From a virus (lineage: Duplodnaviria > Caudoviricetes): 63,709 nt of DNA. The stretch is from positions 1 to 63,709 of the IMG/VR virus record IMGVR_UViG_3300022072_000008. One strand, given 5' to 3'. Positions 11,880-45,003 of this stretch are shown here, one piece after another (within the stretch, counting starts at the first letter, position 1; the number at the start of each line of letters is the position of its first letter). The translations under genes and the position numbers were made by a program. Below the pieces are notes generated by a model that was not told where the DNA came from, ran no database searches, and worked only from the letters and a program-made list of their open reading frames with translations.

Positions 11880-13049
11880 ATGGCCACATACACCCCACTC
11901 AAAGATAAGACAGGCAAAATAACTGCACATCGTTTTCAAATAAGGAAACGAGGGTATAAAGAAAAAACTAAGCAGTTTACCACCAAAGGAAAAGGTGAGC
12001 GTTGGGCTAAGAAAACCGAATCTGAAATGGATGCTGGTTCATACGAAAGCACATCGAACGCTGGACGTTGGACGCTGGGCGCTGTTATGGCCGAGTACCT
12101 CGACAAAATACACCCTATCAAACCTTTTTGTAAATCCAAGAAGAATGCACTACTTCGTTTAATCGAACACCCGATGGCGTCAGTCAGTATTGTGGATCTT
12201 ACTACTCACCATTTCTATGAATTTGCAAAGTATCGTTCAGAGCATGGTGCGGGTCCAAAAACTGTAGCAGATGATATTGGGTATATAAGCAAAGCGCTGA
12301 CGTATGGTCGCGCCATTTTAAAAATACCTAATGCAACTAAGCCGCTAGACGAAGTTAGACCTGTGCTAAATGACTATGGGTTAACTGGTTCGAGTAATAA
12401 GCGCAAACGCAGACTTGTGCCAGGAGAGTTTGAGGCGCTTATGTCTGTACCCCACAGAAAATATGATGGGGCTAGAAGCAATGACAAGGTCATGACTCGG
12501 CTAAGAATGAAATACATTATTCCTTTAGCACTTGAGACAACGATGCGGGAATCAGAAATTGCTCGAATGAAGATTGATGATGTTAATTTTGAGGAAGGGG
12601 AGCTGATGATTTGGGCGCGAAAGCACCCAACAAAGAAGGAAACAAACGATCAGTTAATTCCTCTTACAGAAGAAGCTAGAAAAGTTTTGCGAGAGTATTT
12701 GAACTTAGGCATTCACACTAAAGGCAAACCTTTGTTCTGGCCAGTAAAAGCTAAGAACATGGGTGACATGTTTCACACAATGGCTGAGAAGAGTGGGATT
12801 AATGAAGTGGGTAGCAGTGTTAAGTCAAACTTTAATAACTTGACGTTTCATGATTTGAGGCACGAAGCAATCACACGATTGTTTGCGGAAGGGTTTAAAG
12901 CGGAGGAAGTGATGTTGTTCTCAGGTCATACCGACATGAAGTCACTGTTGATCTATGTAAACCTCACCCCAGCCGATGTCCTACGCGCTAAGGAAATACG
13001 GCGCGTGATCATGGAACAACGGCTAGACGAGATTAGTTTAGCTCTTTAA
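11880..13049 (+). CDS. int: Tyrosine integrase
   Basis: Catalytic R (TTMRESE), K (RKHP), HDLRH, SGH and Y (LIYV). Confidence 0.95.
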   Translation: MATYTPLKDKTGKITAHRFQIRKRGYKEKTKQFTTKGKGERWAKKTESEMDAGSYESTSNAGRWTLGAVMAEYLDKIHPIKPFCKSKKNALLRLIEHPMASVSIVDLTTHHFYEFAKYRSEHGAGPKTVADDIGYISKALTYGRAILKIPNATKPLDEVRPVLNDYGLTGSSNKRKRRLVPGEFEALMSVPHRKYDGARSNDKVMTRLRMKYIIPLALETTMRESEIARMKIDDVNFEEGELMIWARKHPTKKETNDQLIPLTEEARKVLREYLNLGIHTKGKPLFWPVKAKNMGDMFHTMAEKSGINEVGSSVKSNFNNLTFHDLRHEAITRLFAEGFKAEEVMLFSGHTDMKSLLIYVNLTPADVLRAKEIRRVIMEQRLDEISLAL

Positions 13050-37772: not shown

Positions 37773-38285
37773 ATGGAAATTGCAGAAGATGCCTTTGAAG
37801 AAGGGCATAAAGTGCTGCCGAAGTTGACCAAACAGCAAGAGCAGTTTGTTAGGTACTACTTGCTAGGGTATTCAACCACTGAGGCAGGTAAACAGGCAGG
37901 GTATTCACAGGCTAATTCATCCAAGTTGGTGAACAACGCAGTGATACAACGCACGTTGACCTACTTCCGAGAGAAAGAGTTCGATCGCATTGCGGTCACT
38001 CGGGAAAGTATTACTAAATTATTTTTTGAGGCCCACAGAAAGAGTGGTAGCTCAACAGAAGAGGTCGCAGCACTTAGAGAGATTGCAAAAATGCATGGCC
38101 TCTACGAGCCACAAAAGATACAGACGATTAGCGTGAATATAAATTCCGAGCGGCACATAGAAGCCGCAACAGATGCAGATTTACTCAAGCTAGCAGGGCT
38201 GGGTGACACACACTTTAACCCTGATTCAACGATCGACGGTGTATTTGAAGAAGTGGAGGCTAGCAATGGAAAAGAGGGACACTAA
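37773..38285 (+). CDS. terS: Terminase small subunit
   Basis: LTKQQEQFV..Y...TEAGKQAGYS HTH; ALREIAKMHGLY. Confidence 0.85.
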   Translation: MEIAEDAFEEGHKVLPKLTKQQEQFVRYYLLGYSTTEAGKQAGYSQANSSKLVNNAVIQRTLTYFREKEFDRIAVTRESITKLFFEAHRKSGSSTEEVAALREIAKMHGLYEPQKIQTISVNINSERHIEAATDADLLKLAGLGDTHFNPDSTIDGVFEEVEASNGKEGH

Positions 38286-40065
38286 GAAGTGCTCTTTTTG
38301 CAACGAGGATAGACCACACACGTTGTTCGATGCCCATAGCGCGCCGACCGTTTGCTCAAAGTGTAAGAATTTCGGTGAGCGCCGTGCGTTTGAAGCAATT
38401 ATCGCTGACCCAAAGCGCCATAAGCAGTATTTGAAAGAGAAAGAAGAAGAGCAAAAAGCCCAACTCGCCCACAAAGGCAAGCTTTTGCACAACAAACGTT
38501 TGAGACAATCGGAACGAGACACGTTGGAAAAACAAGACTTGGGAAAACAGCCAGATTTTACAGACGAGAATGGTATTTTCGACCCTAAGATGGCTGCACA
38601 GGCAGAACTAGCGAAGCGTGAGCTGGCTCGGAGACACCTATTGCCCTTTGTACAGCGGTTCAACGACAACTACATACCAGGATGGGTGCATAAAGACATT
38701 TGTCTGCGCCTAGAAAAATTTTCAGCAGATGTTGACGCTAAAAAATCCCCCCGATTAATGCTATTTATGCCACCGCGCCACGGTAAGAGTGAATTAGCCT
38801 CTAAAACCTTCCCCGCATGGCACCTTGGGCGTTATCCAGACCACGAATTTATTGCGTGTTCCTACTCTGGCTCGTTGGCCATGGGATTCTCGCGCAAAGT
38901 ACGTGGCTTTTTGCGTGATCAGCAGTATCAGTCCTTGTTTGAAACCCGATTAGATCCCGAATCGCAGGGCGCTGAGCAGTGGCTAACGACCAAAGGTGGT
39001 GGTTATGTCGCAGCGGGCGTGGGCGGACCGATCACCGGTAAAGGCGCTCATATATTAGTAATTGATGATCCTGTAAAAAACCGTGAGCAAGCTGAATCTG
39101 AGACCGCTCGCCAAACGGCAAAGGATTGGTATACCTCAACGGCCTATACGCGTCTCGCGCCGGGCGGTGGCATCCTCGTTATCCTAACTCGTTGGCACGA
39201 TGACGACCTAGCAGGCTGGTTATTGGAGCAAGAGAAAGACGGCGGTGACTCCTGGGAAGTGATCAAGTACCCAGCCATCGCTGAGGAAGACGAGAAGTAC
39301 CGTAAGAAGCACGAACCGTTGCATCCAGCCCGTTATGGCTCTGAAGCATTGATGCGCATACAGAAGGCTGTAGGACCCCGTGATTGGTCCGCTTTGTATC
39401 AGCAAAACCCCGTGGCCGATGAAGGTGAATACTTCAAAATCGGAATGTTCCAATACTACAAAACCAACGCTCTAGAACATAAGAAGCTAAAAGTCTATTG
39501 CGCATGGGACCTTGCGATCGGTAAAGCAGATCGTAACGATTTCTCGGTGGGCGTTGTTGTTGGTGTAGACCAAGAAGACAAGATGTATGTCATGCACGTC
39601 GAGCGGGGCAAATGGGACGGTTACGAGTTAGTCGAGAAAATCCTCGATGTGTATGAGGAATATCAACCGTCGATCGTTGGCATCGAGCGGGGGCACATTG
39701 AGATGGCCCTTGGACCTTTTTTAAAGAAGCGGATCGCCGAGCGTGGTCTGTACGAAATGTATTTGATGGAACTGAAAACGGGGCGCAGAGATAAAGAAGC
39801 TCGAGCCCGTGCGATTCAGGGCCGTATGCAACAAGGTATGGTGTTTTTCCCCAAGTTCCAACTGTGGAATGCAGGATTAATGGCAGAGATGTTGCGATTC
39901 CCTAATGGTGTGCACGATGACCAAGTCGACAGTTTAGCTTGGATCGGATTAATGATGTCCGAGATGTCCACCGTTGTAGACCAAAGAATAATTGAAGAGT
40001 CTTGGAGAGATAAGCTCCCCGGTCTCATGGCCCCTAACCGCAGTAAATCAGCGATGAGTGCATAG
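38266..40065 (+). CDS. terL: Terminase large subunit
   Basis: MPPRHGKS, ITGKGA, VIDDP, TRW, YQQNP, AWDLA, HDDQVD; start ATG 38266 with GGAGG RBS. Confidence 0.95.
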   Translation: MEKRDTKKCSFCNEDRPHTLFDAHSAPTVCSKCKNFGERRAFEAIIADPKRHKQYLKEKEEEQKAQLAHKGKLLHNKRLRQSERDTLEKQDLGKQPDFTDENGIFDPKMAAQAELAKRELARRHLLPFVQRFNDNYIPGWVHKDICLRLEKFSADVDAKKSPRLMLFMPPRHGKSELASKTFPAWHLGRYPDHEFIACSYSGSLAMGFSRKVRGFLRDQQYQSLFETRLDPESQGAEQWLTTKGGGYVAAGVGGPITGKGAHILVIDDPVKNREQAESETARQTAKDWYTSTAYTRLAPGGGILVILTRWHDDDLAGWLLEQEKDGGDSWEVIKYPAIAEEDEKYRKKHEPLHPARYGSEALMRIQKAVGPRDWSALYQQNPVADEGEYFKIGMFQYYKTNALEHKKLKVYCAWDLAIGKADRNDFSVGVVVGVDQEDKMYVMHVERGKWDGYELVEKILDVYEEYQPSIVGIERGHIEMALGPFLKKRIAERGLYEMYLMELKTGRRDKEARARAIQGRMQQGMVFFPKFQLWNAGLMAEMLRFPNGVHDDQVDSLAWIGLMMSEMSTVVDQRIIEESWRDKLPGLMAPNRSKSAMSA

Positions 40066-40067
40066 CT

Positions 40068-42203
40068 ATGGCGTACAAGAAGTCAAAGAAGGTCGATCCT
40101 CTAGAAGAGACTAAGATCGTAGATAATAACTGGGCTCGCTATACGCGGGCTAGAGACGCGGGCCACACTGACTACATAAAGACAGCGATTAAGTGTGATC
40201 GTTATTATCGTGGTGAGCAGTGGGAACAAACAGACATTGACGCATTAGATTCAGAGGGTCGCCCACACCTGACCATCAATACCATTTTGAGCACCGTCAA
40301 CACCATACTGGGGGAGCAGTCCTCTAAACGTGCGGACGTATTGTTTAAGCCTCGACGTAACTCCTCAGATGAAGTCGCTGCGGTGCTCACCAAACTCTAC
40401 ATGCAGATCAGTGACAACAACCAATACGACTATTTAGAGAGTCAGGTGTTCGCTGACGGCATCATCCAAGATCGTGGTTACTTCGACATCCGTATGAATT
40501 TCGACGACCACATTGAGGGTGAGGTGCAGATCACAGCAGAAGACCCATTAGATATTCTGCCTGATCCAGATGCTAAAGATTACGACCCCACCACATGGAA
40601 CGAAGTCATAAAGACCAAGTGGCTAAGCGTCGATGACATTGAGCAACAGTATGGCCAAGAGAAAGCAGATCGCTTGCGTATTATTGCTGAAAACGGCGAG
40701 CACTTAGGCCGTGATTCAATGGACTTGGTGGAGATGCGCGATACGACATATGGTGATGTTGAGGAAGCCATCCTTAATGGTGGAAACATTGATGACAAGC
40801 ACAGTGTTCGTGCCATTCGGGTTGTTGAAAGGCAGCATAGAAAACTAACACTAACTCCACACTTTGTTGACCCTAAAACAAAGGACATGCGCATAGTTCC
40901 AGAATCCTGGGACGAAGAGCGCACTGAGATGTTTGCTAAAGAGTACGGCCTTGGCATGCTCAAAAAGCTAGTTAAGAAGGTACGTTGGACCATTACTGCG
41001 GACCAAGTCGTGTTGCACGATGATTGGTCACCGTACAAAGACTTTACGATCGTACCTTACTTCCCGTATTTCAGGCGTGGTAAACCGTTTGGTATGGTTC
41101 GTAACCTTCTCTCGCCTCAAGAGCAATTGAATAAGATCTCTTCACAAGAACTGCATATTGTGAACACGACTGCTAACAGTGGTTGGGTTGTTGAGACGGG
41201 CTCCTTAAATGGTATGACATCGGATGATCTCCAAGAACGTGGCGCTCAGACAGGTCTAGTATTGGAATACAACCGTGGGTCAGCTGCTCCAGCAAAGATC
41301 CAACCAAACCAGATCCCAACGGGTCTCGATCGCATTGGCCAAAAAGCAGCCAACAACATAAAAGAGATCTCGGGTGTATCTGACGCGATGCTTGGTCAGG
41401 ACAGTGCAGAGGTGTCAGGTGTTGCCATTCAGGCGAAGCAGAATCGTGGTCAGATTCAGATCCAGGTTCCTTTAGATAACCTCGCTCGGTCGCGAGTGTT
41501 TGTTGCTAAAAACATCATGTGCCTTATCCAATCGTTCTATACCGAAGAGCGCGTGATTCAGATTACTAACGACGATGACCCAATGAAACCTCGGGAAGAG
41601 TTGGTACTAAACCAAATGACCCCCGAAGGCGAAGTTGTTAATGACATGACGTTAGGTGAATACGACGTTGTTGTGTCTTCTATGCCAGCCCGTGACACGT
41701 TCGATGAGTCGCAGTTTGCAGAAGCATTGCAGCTACGCCAAGTAGGCATTGCCATTCCTGACGATGCCATTATTGAGTATTCACATCTGCAGCGTAAGGC
41801 TGAGCTTGCTAAGCGTATCCGCATGATTACAGGTGTTGAACAATCGCCAGAGCAGCAAGAAGCCGCTCAGATGCAACAGCAGATCCAGATGGAACAGGTG
41901 AAGTTAGAGATGCAAAAGCTCCAATCAGAAGCGGCTCATTTGCAAGCCCAAGCACAACTTGCTGCAGCAAAAGCAAACGATATAGATACGCAGCCTGAGA
42001 AGGAGATGGCTGAACTAGAAGCACGCATGGCTCTGAAGCGCCAAGAATTGGATGTGCGTATGCAACTGGCTGAGTTGTCCGCAACTCAAAAACAGCAAAC
42101 ATCAGAAACCCAAGCAACTACCAAGATTGCCGCAGAAGTAATGCGGCTTGGTGCCCAAGGGCAAAAGCCCGCTAACCCTGATGGAAATGTATTACCCAAG
42201 TAG
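40068..42203 (+). CDS. Portal protein (P22-like, with C-terminal helical barrel)
   Basis: YY.G.QW...GRP.LTIN, G.VR.L..PQ...NK, SG.AI..KQ; Q/A-rich coiled-coil C-terminus; follows terL. Confidence 0.88.
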   Translation: MAYKKSKKVDPLEETKIVDNNWARYTRARDAGHTDYIKTAIKCDRYYRGEQWEQTDIDALDSEGRPHLTINTILSTVNTILGEQSSKRADVLFKPRRNSSDEVAAVLTKLYMQISDNNQYDYLESQVFADGIIQDRGYFDIRMNFDDHIEGEVQITAEDPLDILPDPDAKDYDPTTWNEVIKTKWLSVDDIEQQYGQEKADRLRIIAENGEHLGRDSMDLVEMRDTTYGDVEEAILNGGNIDDKHSVRAIRVVERQHRKLTLTPHFVDPKTKDMRIVPESWDEERTEMFAKEYGLGMLKKLVKKVRWTITADQVVLHDDWSPYKDFTIVPYFPYFRRGKPFGMVRNLLSPQEQLNKISSQELHIVNTTANSGWVVETGSLNGMTSDDLQERGAQTGLVLEYNRGSAAPAKIQPNQIPTGLDRIGQKAANNIKEISGVSDAMLGQDSAEVSGVAIQAKQNRGQIQIQVPLDNLARSRVFVAKNIMCLIQSFYTEERVIQITNDDDPMKPREELVLNQMTPEGEVVNDMTLGEYDVVVSSMPARDTFDESQFAEALQLRQVGIAIPDDAIIEYSHLQRKAELAKRIRMITGVEQSPEQQEAAQMQQQIQMEQVKLEMQKLQSEAAHLQAQAQLAAAKANDIDTQPEKEMAELEARMALKRQELDVRMQLAELSATQKQQTSETQATTKIAAEVMRLGAQGQKPANPDGNVLPK

Positions 42204-42229: not shown

Positions 42230-43279
42230 ATGCCTAAATCAAAAATAAGTGCCAATTTAGAGCACGATGACAGTATTGAAGATAATAACTTTGACGAGTT
42301 CGCAGGTGGAGATGGTCGCGAAGAATTTGACGCTAGTAGTTTAGATCGCGGCGATATTCCTGAAGAAGAAGTTGATCCAACAGATGCCGCTATCGCGCAT
42401 TTAGTTGAGGTCGCTGATGAAGCAGAAGCCGAAGAGGAAGCGCCCGAAGAGGAAGCCGAAGCAGCCGAGGGCGAAGAAGAAGTTGAATCTGAGCTAGAGG
42501 GTGACGAAGCTGGACTAGAAGGCGAGGAAGTCGAAGAAGAAGCAGAAGAAGTCGAAGAAGTAGCCGCTAAATCGGACGAGAAGTCGCACATGGTGCCCAA
42601 GTCGCGCATGGACGAAGAGATCGCTCGTAGACGGCAGCTTGAAGATCGCCTTGCTAAGCTTGAAGAACGTTCAAAACCTGAAGAAGCTCCAGAGCCAGAG
42701 TTTGATTTCGATGGTAAAGAAGCTGAATACATGGATGCAGTTCTCGATGGTGAGACGGATAAAGCACAAAAAGTGCGTAAAGAAATCCGCAGTGCAGAAC
42801 GAGATTCAATGGCTAAAGAATTGCGCAAGGACATTCACAACACAACGAATGTAACTAAGCAGCAGTTAGATCTTGATGTTGCCGTTTCTGACATGGTGAC
42901 TTCATACCCAGTGCTGGATTCCAATAGCGAACAAGCTGACGCAGATATGATCGCAGATGCTAATGAGCTCATGGGGATGTATGCAGAAAGAGGTATGGCA
43001 CAAGCTGACGCGCTGCGTAAAGCAGTTCGTATGACATTAGCGTCGAGCATGCCTGAGTTGTTACAGCCAAAAGCAGTTGAGTCAAAGCCGACAGCTAAAA
43101 AGCGCACAACGGATGTGAAGCAAAAGCTAGAAGCTGCTAATAAACAACCTGCAAAATTGGCTGGCGAAAGTGCGGCAACGCGCGGTAACGATGTCGTCGA
43201 CATTAGCACCATGACGGACGCTGACTTTGACAAACTATCTGATGCCCAAATGAAACGGTTACGTGGGGACTTTGGCTAA
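42230..43279 (+). CDS. Capsid scaffolding protein
   Basis: Very acidic, helical; VPKSR motif; lies between portal and capsid genes. Confidence 0.75.
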   Translation: MPKSKISANLEHDDSIEDNNFDEFAGGDGREEFDASSLDRGDIPEEEVDPTDAAIAHLVEVADEAEAEEEAPEEEAEAAEGEEEVESELEGDEAGLEGEEVEEEAEEVEEVAAKSDEKSHMVPKSRMDEEIARRRQLEDRLAKLEERSKPEEAPEPEFDFDGKEAEYMDAVLDGETDKAQKVRKEIRSAERDSMAKELRKDIHNTTNVTKQQLDLDVAVSDMVTSYPVLDSNSEQADADMIADANELMGMYAERGMAQADALRKAVRMTLASSMPELLQPKAVESKPTAKKRTTDVKQKLEAANKQPAKLAGESAATRGNDVVDISTMTDADFDKLSDAQMKRLRGDFG

Positions 43280-43533
43280 TGCGCGAGGAAATAGAAGCAG
43301 CGTTCGAATTGGAGTTCCCTGGACTTCTTTTCATGGATGGTCTCGACGATGCAATTATTGGGATGGCTGAAAGGGAGGCAGTCCCAGTAGTTGTGTATTC
43401 CACCATGAAAATACTGCAAAACCTCGTTGATCGGGGTATGGGTATGCATGAAGCTAGAGAGTTCATGGCATTTAATATTGAGGGGGCTTTTGTGGGAGAG
43501 CACACCCCCATTATAGTAGATGATGTCTTTTAA
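43279..43533 (+). CDS. Hypothetical phage protein
   Basis: DGLDDAIIG...VVY...M...EA.EF..FNI.GA.VGE.TPI pattern; TAATG overlap. Confidence 0.7.
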   Translation: MREEIEAAFELEFPGLLFMDGLDDAIIGMAEREAVPVVVYSTMKILQNLVDRGMGMHEAREFMAFNIEGAFVGEHTPIIVDDVF

Positions 43534-43569
43534 TAGATTATTGCGGGCGAATGATGTCTTTTAATAGAT
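43520..43569. repeat. 19-bp direct repeat ATGATGTCTTTTAATAGAT x2
   Basis: 43520-43538 and 43551-43569 (31-bp period). Confidence 0.85.
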
Positions 43570-43587
43570 CATCAATTTCCTTTAATT

Positions 43588-43604
43588 TATAAGCTGTGCT
43601 AATA
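43588..43604 (+). promoter_or_regulatory. Palindromic site
   Basis: TATAAGC-TGT-GCTAATA. Confidence 0.7.
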
Positions 43605-43613
43605 TAGGTACAC

Positions 43614-43797
43614 AGGCTCGTCTTACAGTACGACAACTGTTAAAGCCTCTTGAATCGAAGGCCGTACGACACACGGCAGCATTCGCCAGCTTAAAAAGGC
43701 CATGAGTTCGTCCCTCTAAAAAAGGTCGCTATTTCGTTCGGGCACGACACGTCCAACAGCATGCAGTGGTTGTCGCCCCTGCCTGATTAATGGCGAC
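43614..43797 (+). ncRNA. Candidate structured 5' leader of the capsid gene (hairpin array)
   Basis: Three hairpins with ACGACA(C) loops on different stems, two A-rich-loop hairpins and a GTCGCC/GGCGAC stem. Confidence 0.55.
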
Positions 43798-43801
43798 CGT
43801 T

Positions 43802-43818
43802 TATAAGCAATGCTTATA
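43802..43818. promoter_or_regulatory. Perfect palindromic site upstream of the capsid gene
   Basis: TATAAGC-AAT-GCTTATA. Confidence 0.75.
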
Positions 43819-43850
43819 TTTTATTTAATTTTTTTATAGGTGATTTTCTC

Positions 43851-44960
43851 ATGGCATTAACTAACTTTGCCGCTCTAACTTCAGAGCAAAAGACCGTATG
43901 GTCTCGCGACTTCTGGCACGCTGCCCGTAACGCATCCTTCATTAACCAATTCGCTGGTTCTGGCTCTAACGCCATGGTTCAGCGCATTACTGACTTAACT
44001 AAAAGTGAAAAGGGCGCACGCGCTGTTTTAACTTTGCTAGCTGACTTGTCTGGAGACGGTGTTGTAGGTGACTACACTCTAGAAGGCAACGAAGAAGCAC
44101 TTTCTAGTTCAGACATCACAGTTCGTATCGACCAGATGCGTAATGCAAACCGTTTGGCTGGCCGTTTAGCCGACCAAAAGTCTATCGTAAACTTCCGCGA
44201 AGCCTCTAAAGATTCATTGGCTTACTGGATGGCTGACCGTATGGACCAGATTGCATTCTTAACTTTGTCTGGTTTGGCATACACCAAGAAGAACAACGGT
44301 GGTGTTCGTACTGTAGCTGCTGCTGGTCAAAACTTGAGCAACCTTGAGTTTGCTGCTGACGTTTCTGCTCCTACTAGCGCACGTACATTAATTGCAAATG
44401 CTGACGGTACTGTTGGTACTGGCGATCTTGCTGCTACTGGAATCTTGGGATACAAGAACATTGTAAACCTAAAAGCTTATGCCAAAGATCACTACATGCG
44501 TGGTGTACGTGGCAAAGGTGGTGACGAAGGTTTCCATATGTTCGTTACCCCACAAGGCATGGCTCAGCTCAAGTTAGACGCTGATTTCCTAGCTAACGTT
44601 CGTAACGCAGGCAACCGTGGACCAGTTAACTCTTTGTTCTCAGGTTCTTCTTCCGTAATGGTAGACGGCGTAATGGTTCATGAGTTCCGTCATGTATATG
44701 ACACTTCTGGTGAAGCATCTGGATCTAAGTTTGGTTCCGGCGGTACGGTAGACGGACAACGTGTCTTGTTCTGTGGCGCACAAGCATTGGCAATGGCTGA
44801 CATTGGCGACGCTGACTGGGTTGAAGATACTTACGACTACGGAAACCAGCACGGTATCTCAATCGGTAAGATCTTAGGCTTCCGTAAGCCAAAGTACACC
44901 AGCATGGTAACTGGCGACACCCAAGACTTTGGTGTAATCACGCTAGACACTGCGCTTTAA
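43851..44960 (+). CDS. Major capsid protein (N4 gp56-like / DUF4043)
   Basis: L.GDGV.GD..LEGNEE.L...IDQ.R.A; LFCGAQALA.A; QDFGVI; follows the scaffold; own terminator. Confidence 0.9.
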   Translation: MALTNFAALTSEQKTVWSRDFWHAARNASFINQFAGSGSNAMVQRITDLTKSEKGARAVLTLLADLSGDGVVGDYTLEGNEEALSSSDITVRIDQMRNANRLAGRLADQKSIVNFREASKDSLAYWMADRMDQIAFLTLSGLAYTKKNNGGVRTVAAAGQNLSNLEFAADVSAPTSARTLIANADGTVGTGDLAATGILGYKNIVNLKAYAKDHYMRGVRGKGGDEGFHMFVTPQGMAQLKLDADFLANVRNAGNRGPVNSLFSGSSSVMVDGVMVHEFRHVYDTSGEASGSKFGSGGTVDGQRVLFCGAQALAMADIGDADWVEDTYDYGNQHGISIGKILGFRKPKYTSMVTGDTQDFGVITLDTAL

Positions 44961-44976: not shown

Positions 44977-45003
44977 CCCCCGGCAGGACGCTGGGGGCTT
45001 TTT
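44977..45003 (+). terminator. Intrinsic terminator after the capsid gene
   Basis: CCCCCGGC-AGGAC-GCTGGGGG-CTTTTT. Confidence 0.75.

Follow-up and report, generated by a model that had tools for sequence, protein, structure and literature searches.

A structured leader RNA with repeated, predicted miniature pseudoknots ahead of the major capsid gene in a large clade of aquatic temperate phages

The IMG/VR virus record IMGVR_UViG_3300022072_000008 (63,709 nt; the whole stretch is here called the window) is a complete virus record of 63.7 kb from a temperate phage, in which a 317-nt gap separates an acidic open reading frame (ORF) of 84 aa from the major capsid gene. Three hairpins with nearly the same loop lie inside this gap. 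The stretch 43611-43850 constitutes the structured 5′ leader of the major capsid mRNA and is conserved in a large clade of uncultivated aquatic temperate phages; it is close to certain that the region is a pseudoknotted leader RNA, and we infer that it probably sets the amount of capsid protein. The features of the locus are listed below, with the RNA elements given in RNA letters.

43279-43533, plus strand: acidic ORF of 84 aa
43588-43606, plus strand: putative promoter/operator motif TATAAGC-TGT-GCTAATATA, holding an extended -10-like TGcTAATAT at 43597-43605
43614-43648, plus strand: module 1 (M1), stem and pseudoknot backed by covariation in homologues
43614-43618 and 43644-43648, plus strand: outer stem of M1, AGGCU/AGCCU
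43618-43621, plus strand: pseudoknot strand of M1, UCGU, followed by the spacer CUU
43625-43629 and 43636-43640, plus strand: stem of M1, ACAGU/ACUGU
43630-43635, plus strand: loop of M1, ACGACA, the ACGA of which pairs with UCGU
43655-43677, plus strand: module 2 (M2), opening with UCGA (43655-43658) and the spacer AG
43661-43665 and 43673-43677, plus strand: stem of M2, GCCGU/ACGGC, enclosing the loop ACGACAC (43666-43672)
43704-43723, plus strand: middle hairpin GAG-UUCGUCC-CUC (43704-43716) and a single-stranded UAAAAAA tail, from RNAalifold
43734-43754, plus strand: module 3 (M3), opening with UCGU (43734-43737) and the spacer UC
43740-43743 and 43751-43754, plus strand: stem of M3, GGGC/GUCC, enclosing the loop ACGACAC (43744-43750)
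43772-43797, plus strand: 3′ hairpin GUCGCC (43772-43777)/GGCGAC (43792-43797) with a 14-nt loop, invariant in 14/14 group-A leaders
43802-43835, plus strand: perfect palindrome TATAAGC-AAT-GCTTATA (43802-43818) followed by a U-rich run, second copy of a genome-wide motif
43838-43843, plus strand: Shine-Dalgarno sequence AGGUGA ahead of the major capsid gene
43851-44960, plus strand: major capsid gene (Pfam PF13252, E 2e-40; PHROG 334, major head protein)
44977-44997, plus strand: strong intrinsic-terminator-like hairpin directly 3′ of the capsid gene

A preliminary description of this DNA had named three hairpins with ACGACA(C) loops, each preceded by UCG(U), and on reading the sequence all three were found with the positions and letters claimed: hairpin 1, ACAGT-ACGACA-ACTGT at 43625-43640 after UCGU (43618-43621); hairpin 2, GCCGT-ACGACAC-ACGGC at 43661-43677 after UCGA (43655-43658); and hairpin 3, GGGC-ACGACAC-GTCC at 43740-43754 with one G.U pair, after UCGU (43734-43737). 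The genome-wide number of ACGANA-loop hairpins with a stem of at least 4 bp is ordinary, with six in the whole window on both strands versus 5.3 ± 2.2 in mononucleotide shuffles. Three of the six are clustered within 125 nt of the leader, and the other three (10465, 13027 and 28072) are scattered and lack UCGU.

Homologous leaders were collected by a capsid-based IMG/VR scan, which found 443 relatives. The 80 best were retained, and 72 of them had at least 300 nt upstream and yielded 42 distinct leaders. Additional scans, with two divergent capsids and with species-representative genomes, brought the collection to 319 leaders, 197 of them distinct, and capsid relatives were present at no fewer than 590 loci per scan of IMG/VR. 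Three groups were distinguished by their capsid identity to the window: group A (88-99%) with three ACGAYA hairpins, group B (70-73%) with two and group C (67-69%) likewise with two. Hairpins with an RCGANA loop were present in 14/14 distinct leaders at a capsid identity of at least 85% (three each), in all six at 70-85% (two each), in 156 of 165 at 60-70%, in 3/6 at 55-60% and in two of the six below 55%. As a control the reverse complements of the same leaders were scored, and 174 of the 197 held no such hairpin; this strict count replaced a relaxed module counter, the reverse-complement control of which also scored high. Within group A the 3′ half of the leader is nearly invariant. The nearest named phages by capsid identity, Pseudomonas KPP25/phiR18 (55%), Acidovorax AP1 (48%) and Aeromonas phiA008 (46%), have leaders without the modules. 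A generic module finder gave zero to three matches per leader in Bcep22, Gamede, KLEP18-1 and Atu_ph08 versus shuffle means of 0.1-0.6, with no common pattern, and a DNA search of named phages with the leader returned no match in near mode and only a 28-nt chance match in distant mode.

Stem covariation was taken from loop-anchored scripts and from a gapless alignment (A8) of 51 distinct M1 modules, namely those out of 96 that share a 2-nt spacer, a 6-bp stem and a 6-nt loop; the MAFFT alignments A4 and A6 of M1, which misplaced group B, were left unused. With the loop-anchored scripts, hairpin 1 was found in 19 distinct versions, all of at least 5 bp and with three to six pair types at each pair. 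Hairpin 2 occurred in eight distinct versions, with pairs 1-4 kept in all eight and with compensatory changes, and hairpin 3 in 12, nine of which have four contiguous pairs, with a bulged A in group B. In the tool alignment of hairpin 3, three of four stem pairs change on both sides and the score was reached by 0/500 shuffles; in A8 all six stem pairs change on both sides, 100% of the cells are paired, and again none of 500 shuffles reached the score. The conserved loop on different stems had been read as the mark of a repeated RNA module, and this reading is borne out by stems that covary heavily in the 197 distinct leaders. M2 is confined to the closest relatives (group A) and does not occur in groups B and C. 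Of two outer stems drawn earlier, AGGCT/AGCCT is kept in 14/14 group-A leaders with two pairs changing on both sides, whereas GAAT/ATTC is not kept (AAAT..TATC in L003, AAAT..CCTC in L007).

Neither UCG(U) nor the loop varies within groups A to C, so that their pairing could not be assessed on those leaders; the wider set shows covariation, which settles it. The tally for M1 covered 96 distinct modules, with 12 rows having no hairpin at that column, and included the following combinations.

Loop ACGA with 5′ strand TCGT: 60 distinct modules
Loop ACGA with 5′ strand ACGT: 3 distinct modules
Loop ACGA with 5′ strand CCGT: 2 distinct modules
Loop GCGA with 5′ strand TCGC: 8 distinct modules
Loop GCGA with 5′ strand TCGT (U.G): 1 distinct module
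Loop CAAG with 5′ strand CTTG: 2 distinct modules
Loop CGCG with 5′ strand CGCG: 1 distinct module
Loop TCGA with 5′ strand TCGG (G.U): 1 distinct module

Among the 51 modules of A8, one pseudoknot pair is UA in 44, CG in six, UG in one and never unpaired. Between L230 and L225, each with 90-93% capsid identity to L204, a middle pseudoknot pair changes from G-C to U-A, and variants of M3 carry ACGC:GCGA (L244), ACGG:CCGA (L212, L213) and UCGC:GCGA (L216), with U.G intermediates in L269 and L222. The UCG(U):(A)CGA pseudoknot suggested earlier is thus upheld by compensatory UCGC:GCGA, CUUG:CAAG, CGCG:CGCG and CGG:CCG in homologues. As judged by covariation, which supports both interleaved helices, each module is a small H-type pseudoknot. 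Its plan comprises a 5′ strand of 4 nt (usually UCGU), a spacer of 1-4 nt and a hairpin of 4-6 bp; the first four loop bases (usually ACGA) pair with the 5′ strand and two or three loop bases (YA/YAC) remain. Expressed as H-type geometry, the first helix has 3-4 bp, the first loop 1-4 nt and the second helix 4-6 bp, followed, with no junction base, by a last loop of 2-3 nt. Such loop lengths are sterically plausible under the usual rules for pseudoknots. The leader is built from two to four of these miniature pseudoknots, and covarying hairpins with UWAAA(A) tails stand between the modules.

Since G.U pairs are possible only when the plus strand is read, the fold belongs to the sense RNA. It is highly improbable that the repeats are protein-binding sites at the DNA level without any RNA structure: TCGT and ACGA are reverse complements of each other and the flanking palindromes resemble DNA sites, but the stems change and yet stay complementary, G.U pairs are A.C mismatches on the other strand, and interleaved pseudoknot helices are not explicable by a DNA inverted repeat.

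The module was additionally found in a second group of phages. A pattern scan of viral contigs listed 80 loci, 34 of them without a capsid gene downstream; 33 of these 34 were rejected as stemless chance matches in coding-looking DNA, ten of them copies of one recurring stretch, and L123 was left as the sole genuine locus. L123 is not a capsid relative of the window. Its capsid-profile match (15 bits) ran into non-coding sequence and was a false lead, and its ORFs had no PHROG match. It belongs to a family with L384-L387, the proteins of which are 45-47% identical to each other, and in which a leader of ~200 nt with several modules precedes an acidic ORF of ~290 aa without a Pfam or PHROG match that we take, by its position, to be the scaffold. 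This ORF is followed by a terminator and then by a PF13252 capsid gene 24% identical to that of the window. One module of this second group pairs ACGU or UCGU:ACGA in some members versus ACGC:GCGA in others; another pairs CCCC:GGGG, CCCU:AGGG or CGCC:GGCG, and in every case its spacer is AA, its stem has 4 bp and its remainder is of the AUA type. A module common to phages with capsids only 24% identical must be ancient or mobile.

A search of Rfam 15 at gathering score gave no match in the whole window, in line with the earlier remark that no named family was recognised in the array. With E up to 10 the region 43400-43950 gave only chance-level matches to FourU and TMV_UPD-PK3, and with E up to 5 nothing fell on the modules in 20 plus nine related loci, the second group included. 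Relative to Rfam 15 the leader represents a new family of structured RNA, and it is widespread among aquatic phages with capsids of the PF13252 lineage. PMC10690425, a screen from 2023 that covered over 5 million viral sequences, lists 10,006 candidate RNAs without names, of which five lie upstream of a capsid family; the leader motif may already be among these candidates. The same paper notes that even the classic T4 gene 32 operator lacks an Rfam model. The DUF2815 RNA (RF03084) was rejected as an identity, with a best match of 30.7 bits versus a gathering score of 41.2 in one of 20 loci (L343:542-603) that did not cover the modules. This stretch, which corresponds to 43767-43853 of the window and holds the 3′ hairpin and the ribosome-binding site, does resemble the DUF2815 RNA, with similar loops (CUCCAUAAAGU versus CCCCuAUUGAAGU); the DUF2815 RNA precedes phage single-strand-binding protein genes, whereas the leader precedes the capsid gene.

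Known systems, described here and below from general background, share some of the traits of the leader. In the T4 gene 32 operator, too, an H-type pseudoknot and UWAAA repeats precede the ribosome-binding site, but the leader has several small pseudoknots, carries its A-runs between hairpins and serves a capsid or scaffold gene instead of a single-strand-binding protein gene. Stabilisers at the 5′ end, such as the ompA 5′ hairpin, are likewise stable structures that start no more than a few bases into a highly expressed message; unlike these, the element of the leader is a pseudoknot, repeated inside the leader and conserved in sequence. Tandem exonuclease-resistant RNAs (xrRNAs) of flaviviruses and plant viruses are compact pseudoknotted modules in tandem in a viral untranslated region, as here, but they belong to eukaryotic viruses, lie in the 3′ untranslated region and are larger, with three-way junctions or loop-to-3′ knots.

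Between the modules, two more UCG-led hairpins with A-rich loops had been described, of which one A-rich "loop" did not stand: comparison across the groups favours GAG-UUCGUCC-CUC with a single-stranded tail. The equivalents of this middle hairpin in groups B and C are CGUG-UUCACU-CACG-UAAAAAA and CGUG-UCGCA-CACG-UAAAAA, and its stems vary among the wider leaders (CGUG/CACG, CGGC/GCCG, CAGG/CCUG; by eye among the rows listed, without a pair count). At the 3′ end, RNAalifold favours a long helix GGUCGCUAUU/AAUGGCGACC, which competes with the GTCGCC/GGCGAC stem, and other groups have a hairpin at the equivalent position with different letters (AGCCG/CGGCU, GGGC/GCCC, AGUCG/CGACU). The proposed closing stem was not confirmed, as its letters never vary in group A. 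The leader sequence GCCAUGAG (43699-43706) is moreover perfectly complementary to CUCAUGGC across the capsid start codon (43848-43855), and this helix is present in the minimum-free-energy fold. As the GAG of GCCAUGAG also forms the 5′ arm of the middle hairpin, the two pairings are exclusive; the complementarity is kept in group A (with one mismatch in L020) and was not seen in group C.

Transcription is predicted to start at ~43611-43613, just downstream of the motif at 43588-43606, close to which the depth of RNA contigs rises. The upstream 19-mer has six matches at no more than three mismatches in the window versus 0.01 expected, and the 17-mer TATAAGCNNNGCTWATA has 38 strand-matches at ~20 sites versus ~1 expected. 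In general form the motif is TATAAGC-N3-GCTWATA, a 17-bp near-palindrome in short intergenic gaps, and its sites are as follows.

TATAAGC-N3-GCTWATA sites in the window: 5482, 6801, 13486, 14539, 14573, 15657, 15682, 23376, 23774, 26117, 26150, 27848, 31604, 34151, 37313, 43588, 43802, 55819, 55860

The GCTAATA form is oriented with the adjacent gene and often lies 10-30 nt from the start codon; the motif may be a phage-wide promoter that doubles as the operator of a dimeric repressor. The "stoperators" of mycobacteriophage L5 resemble such a repeated 17-bp motif. The motif precedes the leader in L202 too, and in a variant form in L210. The two palindromes that had been taken to box the array (43588-43604 and 43802-43818) are accordingly no parts of it, being two of the ~20 copies of this genome-wide motif. 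A sigma-70 shape is clearer in the related prophage L210 (TTGCGC-N17/18-TATAAT) and in group C (TTGCGA-N17-TAATCT). In a survey of 157 rows, ten had no -10-like hexamer, and in 102 of the 147 rows having one the nearest hexamer ends 8-12 nt before the 5′ pseudoknot strand, from which we infer that the first module begins at about +1 to +6 of the RNA. In L026 and L027 the stretch from the preceding stop codon to the leader lacks a promoter, so that the element is internal to a longer mRNA there, which favours a role in cis.

The site at 43802-43835 could be a second promoter/operator or a weak terminator. In L021-L023 its sequence is the promoter-type CTAATAT, which cannot fold as an RNA hairpin; since the promoter form is present there without the RNA fold, the group-A copy at 43802-43818 is read as a second promoter/operator and not as a terminator. 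A terminator scan made no call at 43802-43835. In group C a different hairpin, closer in appearance to a terminator, occupies this place, its pairing kept through G.U changes and with three to five U after it.

The leader stretch was found in 18 RNA-labelled rows (22 rows from 15 studies in all) of freshwater, marine, seawater and aquatic metagenome origin. Contig depth on the window was compared for four freshwater-labelled runs (X1-X4), with contigs that give no ends, strand, level or half-lives. In X3 one contig spans 43550-45810 at a depth of 30 versus ~4 upstream, and in X4 one contig spans 43621-46029 at a depth of 79 versus 11 upstream. The X1 contig (43085-45287, depth 33 versus 3-5) starts upstream of the promoter motif, and the depth of X2 is flat across the whole stretch, so that this run may be DNA-like or reflect its source sample. 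In the metatranscriptome contigs the depth of leader and capsid gene is about 8-fold above that of the upstream DNA, and in three of the four runs it is uneven, as expected of RNA. The leader and the capsid gene are always on one contig, with no contig break before the capsid gene or at 43802-43835. The region is thus transcribed, being present in RNA libraries and joined to the capsid gene. Adapter letters adjoin the X4 contig end at 43621, but they adjoin a second contig end, at 43189, as well, which leaves 43621 as only a weak hint of an RNA 5′ end. The contigs of X1, X3 and X4 continue 300-1000 nt beyond the terminator-like hairpin at 44977-44997.

These data bear on the idea that the leader is an attenuator or antiterminator, which would decide whether transcription stops at a hairpin and U-run before the ribosome-binding site, or would modify the polymerase for later terminators, as is known for the HK022 put RNA and the lambda PR′-tR′ region. 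Groups A and C do have a hairpin 3′ of the array and 5′ of the ribosome-binding site, the group-C one with kept pairing and a U-run, the distance from promoter to hairpin is ~200 nt, and RNA contigs pass the strong terminator after the capsid gene. The idea is nevertheless unlikely: the group-A hairpin is AT-rich, weak and a copy of the genome-wide motif, its RNA fold is broken in L021-L023 with the promoter form kept, group B has no hairpin there, L068 and L071 have a hairpin without a U-run, and no RNA contig ends at that hairpin, although contigs cannot show 3′ ends. The HK022 put-type antiterminator RNA consists of two specific stem-loops just after a promoter that make the polymerase resistant to terminators; compared by description, it and the leader have the position after a promoter in common. 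A lambda-type nut site (boxA and boxB) was rejected on the loops, as those of the leader have 6-7 nt and are pseudoknot-paired, in place of a 5-nt GNRA-like loop left free for an arginine-rich peptide; no search was made for boxA or an N-like protein.

Slightly less likely again is a stand-alone small RNA of ~200 nt, either a sponge or decoy that would take up, for example, an RNA-binding protein or a defence nuclease of the host, or a ligand-sensing riboswitch. The element has its own promoter-like motif in most lineages and a high information content, with the nearly invariant 3′ half in group A, but L026 and L027 have no promoter, the RNA contigs join the element to the capsid gene, and there is no Rfam match to a riboswitch or small RNA. 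For a riboswitch, the ACGR loops recall guanidine-II and the hairpin with an A-tail recalls preQ1-I. The guanidine-II riboswitch (mini-ykkC, RF01068) has, as does the leader, at least two hairpins on covarying stems with ACGR loops; its tetraloops, however, kiss each other, whereas the leader loops are ACGAYA or ACGAYAC of 6-7 nt that pair with the upstream UCGU, and the gene downstream encodes a capsid or scaffold-like protein, not a guanidine export or metabolism protein nor any other transporter or biosynthesis enzyme. The preQ1-I riboswitch was rejected, with no Rfam match and, by inspection, no pairing of tail to loop in the hairpin with UAAAAA.

Our best guess, held tentatively, is stabilisation and tuning of the capsid mRNA by its own leader, with the array acting in cis and after transcription. 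With the first pseudoknot a few nucleotides past the predicted start, the 5′ end of the mRNA would be tied up; the array would shield it, the knots would block 5′-end-dependent decay (RppH or RNase E entry and scanning), and the capsid message would outlive and out-produce the rest of the late operon. This reading follows from the 5′-terminal placement, the tandem knots, a paired helix that tolerates sequence change and the need for a very high capsid output; moreover, the knot helix swaps letters and keeps its pairing, so that shape seems to matter over letters, which fits a structural block.

Several observations weigh against stabilisation. Most modules retain UCGU:ACGA, also where capsid identity has fallen to 24%, and the leftover loop bases, the UCG-containing loops and the A-runs are also conserved; this exceeds the needs of a physical block and hints at a specific partner. 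The internal modules M2 and M3 are as conserved as the 5′-terminal one, and the first module of L026 and L027 lies away from any primary 5′ end. The pseudoknot helix has at times only 3 bp, with C for U at the first position in L021/22 and L031, and the fourth position is mismatched in L221 and L368/L377. Compensatory changes were tallied over distinct sequences and not on a tree. Furthermore, covariation supports both helices and not their simultaneity, so that a switch between two folds is possible.

A translational operator is a possible, somewhat less probable alternative. The pseudoknots and the hairpin/A-tail units would bind a head-assembly protein or another phage or host protein that represses or activates capsid translation; were this the scaffold or the capsid protein, autogenous control coupled to assembly would result. 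Several copies of one motif on different stems are found in multi-site protein-binding RNAs such as CsrB/RsmZ, the MS2 and boxB sites and the T4 gene 32 operator with its pseudoknot and UUAAA repeats. The letters of the loop and of the 5′ strand are very deeply conserved, the element precedes a head-shell gene in both groups (the capsid gene here, the scaffold in L384-L387), and in group A GCCAUGAG can pair with the start-codon region. The strong conservation of UCGU:ACGA, of the UCG-containing middle loops and of the UWAAA tails places the operator close behind the stabiliser. Against it, the knot helix is fully replaceable (CUUG:CAAG, CCCC:GGGG), which speaks against a base-specific reading of the loop, and the computed accessibility of the ribosome-binding site is unremarkable.

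One candidate partner for an operator is encoded by the phage itself.

23834-24058, minus strand: CsrA-family gene (PF02599, 43 bits)

In this protein the common CsrA core is intact, with an arginine at the position of the functional residue R44, and the gene is present in 9/9 near-complete virus records of the lineage that were checked, that is, in the window and in eight of eight related records. CsrA/RsmA-binding RNAs such as CsrB and RsmZ are, like the leader, arrays of hairpins with one loop motif, but the leader loop motif is ACGA, not GGA, and its loops are engaged in pseudoknots. CsrA-binding RNAs carry GGA (ANGGA) in hairpin loops, and one such site usually covers the Shine-Dalgarno sequence. 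GGA, the core of CsrA sites, occurs zero times in the window leader and on average 1.3 times per leader versus ~2.9 expected, and a record of the second phage group, 98% complete, has no CsrA gene. Because the leader lacks GGA, the phage CsrA-like protein was not adopted as the partner. The 84-aa ORF was also rejected, as it is acidic, matches neither CsrA nor any other Pfam family and is missing from groups B and C.

In Bcep22-like phages the csrA gene adjoins the capsid gene (PMC9144972), and in the JC1 paper the csrA-like gene is treated as a moron. The csrA-like gene was seen in the head cluster just upstream of the capsid gene, directly in Bcep22 and with one small ORF between in Gamede. 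The capsid leaders of both (L390:2358-2452 and L391:2346-2500, respectively) hold a near-consensus CsrA site, GCAGGAUGUGC or GCAGGAGUG, and also a ribosome-binding site of the GGA/GAGG type, which suggests that phage CsrA may control capsid translation in Bcep22-type phages.

In a broader and rather doubtful proposal, the mini-pseudoknot array would belong to a new, widespread class of phage RNA devices by which the output of head genes is made to depend on the cell's state or on that of assembly, either as a bacterial counterpart of nuclease-resistant RNAs, with tandem knots halting 5′-end-dependent decay, or as a shape-specific operator read by the conserved scaffold or capsid protein in distant phages with PF13252 capsids. 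To our knowledge, the structured leaders of phage late genes have so far been little charted, and the leader is a candidate with covarying helices, presence at the RNA level, a clear modular repeat architecture and wide abundance. A small self-contained pseudoknot that controls mRNA fate would, if true, be of interest to bacterial RNA biology and a possible part for expression systems.

Beyond the leader, the window encodes the following genes of the head region and of lysogeny.

38203-40065, plus strand: large terminase gene
40068-42203, plus strand: portal gene, P22-type
42230-43279, plus strand: scaffold-like gene
11880-13049: integrase gene

Genes for DNA polymerase, primase and helicase are likewise present. 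Of ten large ORFs examined in the window none was recognised as an RNA polymerase, and a scan of the window for tRNA and tmRNA genes gave none. A tandem duplication with a period of 31 nt spans the stop codon of the 84-aa ORF (ATGATGTCTTTTAATAGAT at 43520-43538, repeated at 43551-43569); it does not occur in L002 and is present in L001 and L004.

Related prophages were found in isolates of Motiliproteus coralliicola C34 (L210), Vreelandella jeotgali (L212), V. massiliensis (L213) and Curvibacter lanceolatus (L219), which points to hosts among the Gamma- and Betaproteobacteria and provides culturable systems; with the prophage copies in cultured M. coralliicola C34 and Vreelandella strains, the function of the leader is directly testable. 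Among L202-L222, capsid-bearing contigs are binned in metagenome-assembled genomes of Dehalococcoidales, Poseidoniales archaea, Verrucomicrobiales, Saccharibacteria and Phycisphaerae, and these placements are most likely coverage mis-binning and not true hosts. In many phages of the group-C type, a short lysine-rich peptide (e.g. ~40 aa with K/R runs) constitutes or ends the ORF just before the leader (L035, L036, L205, L206, L208 and L220); it may represent the tail of a scaffold or else a small protein that binds nucleic acid.

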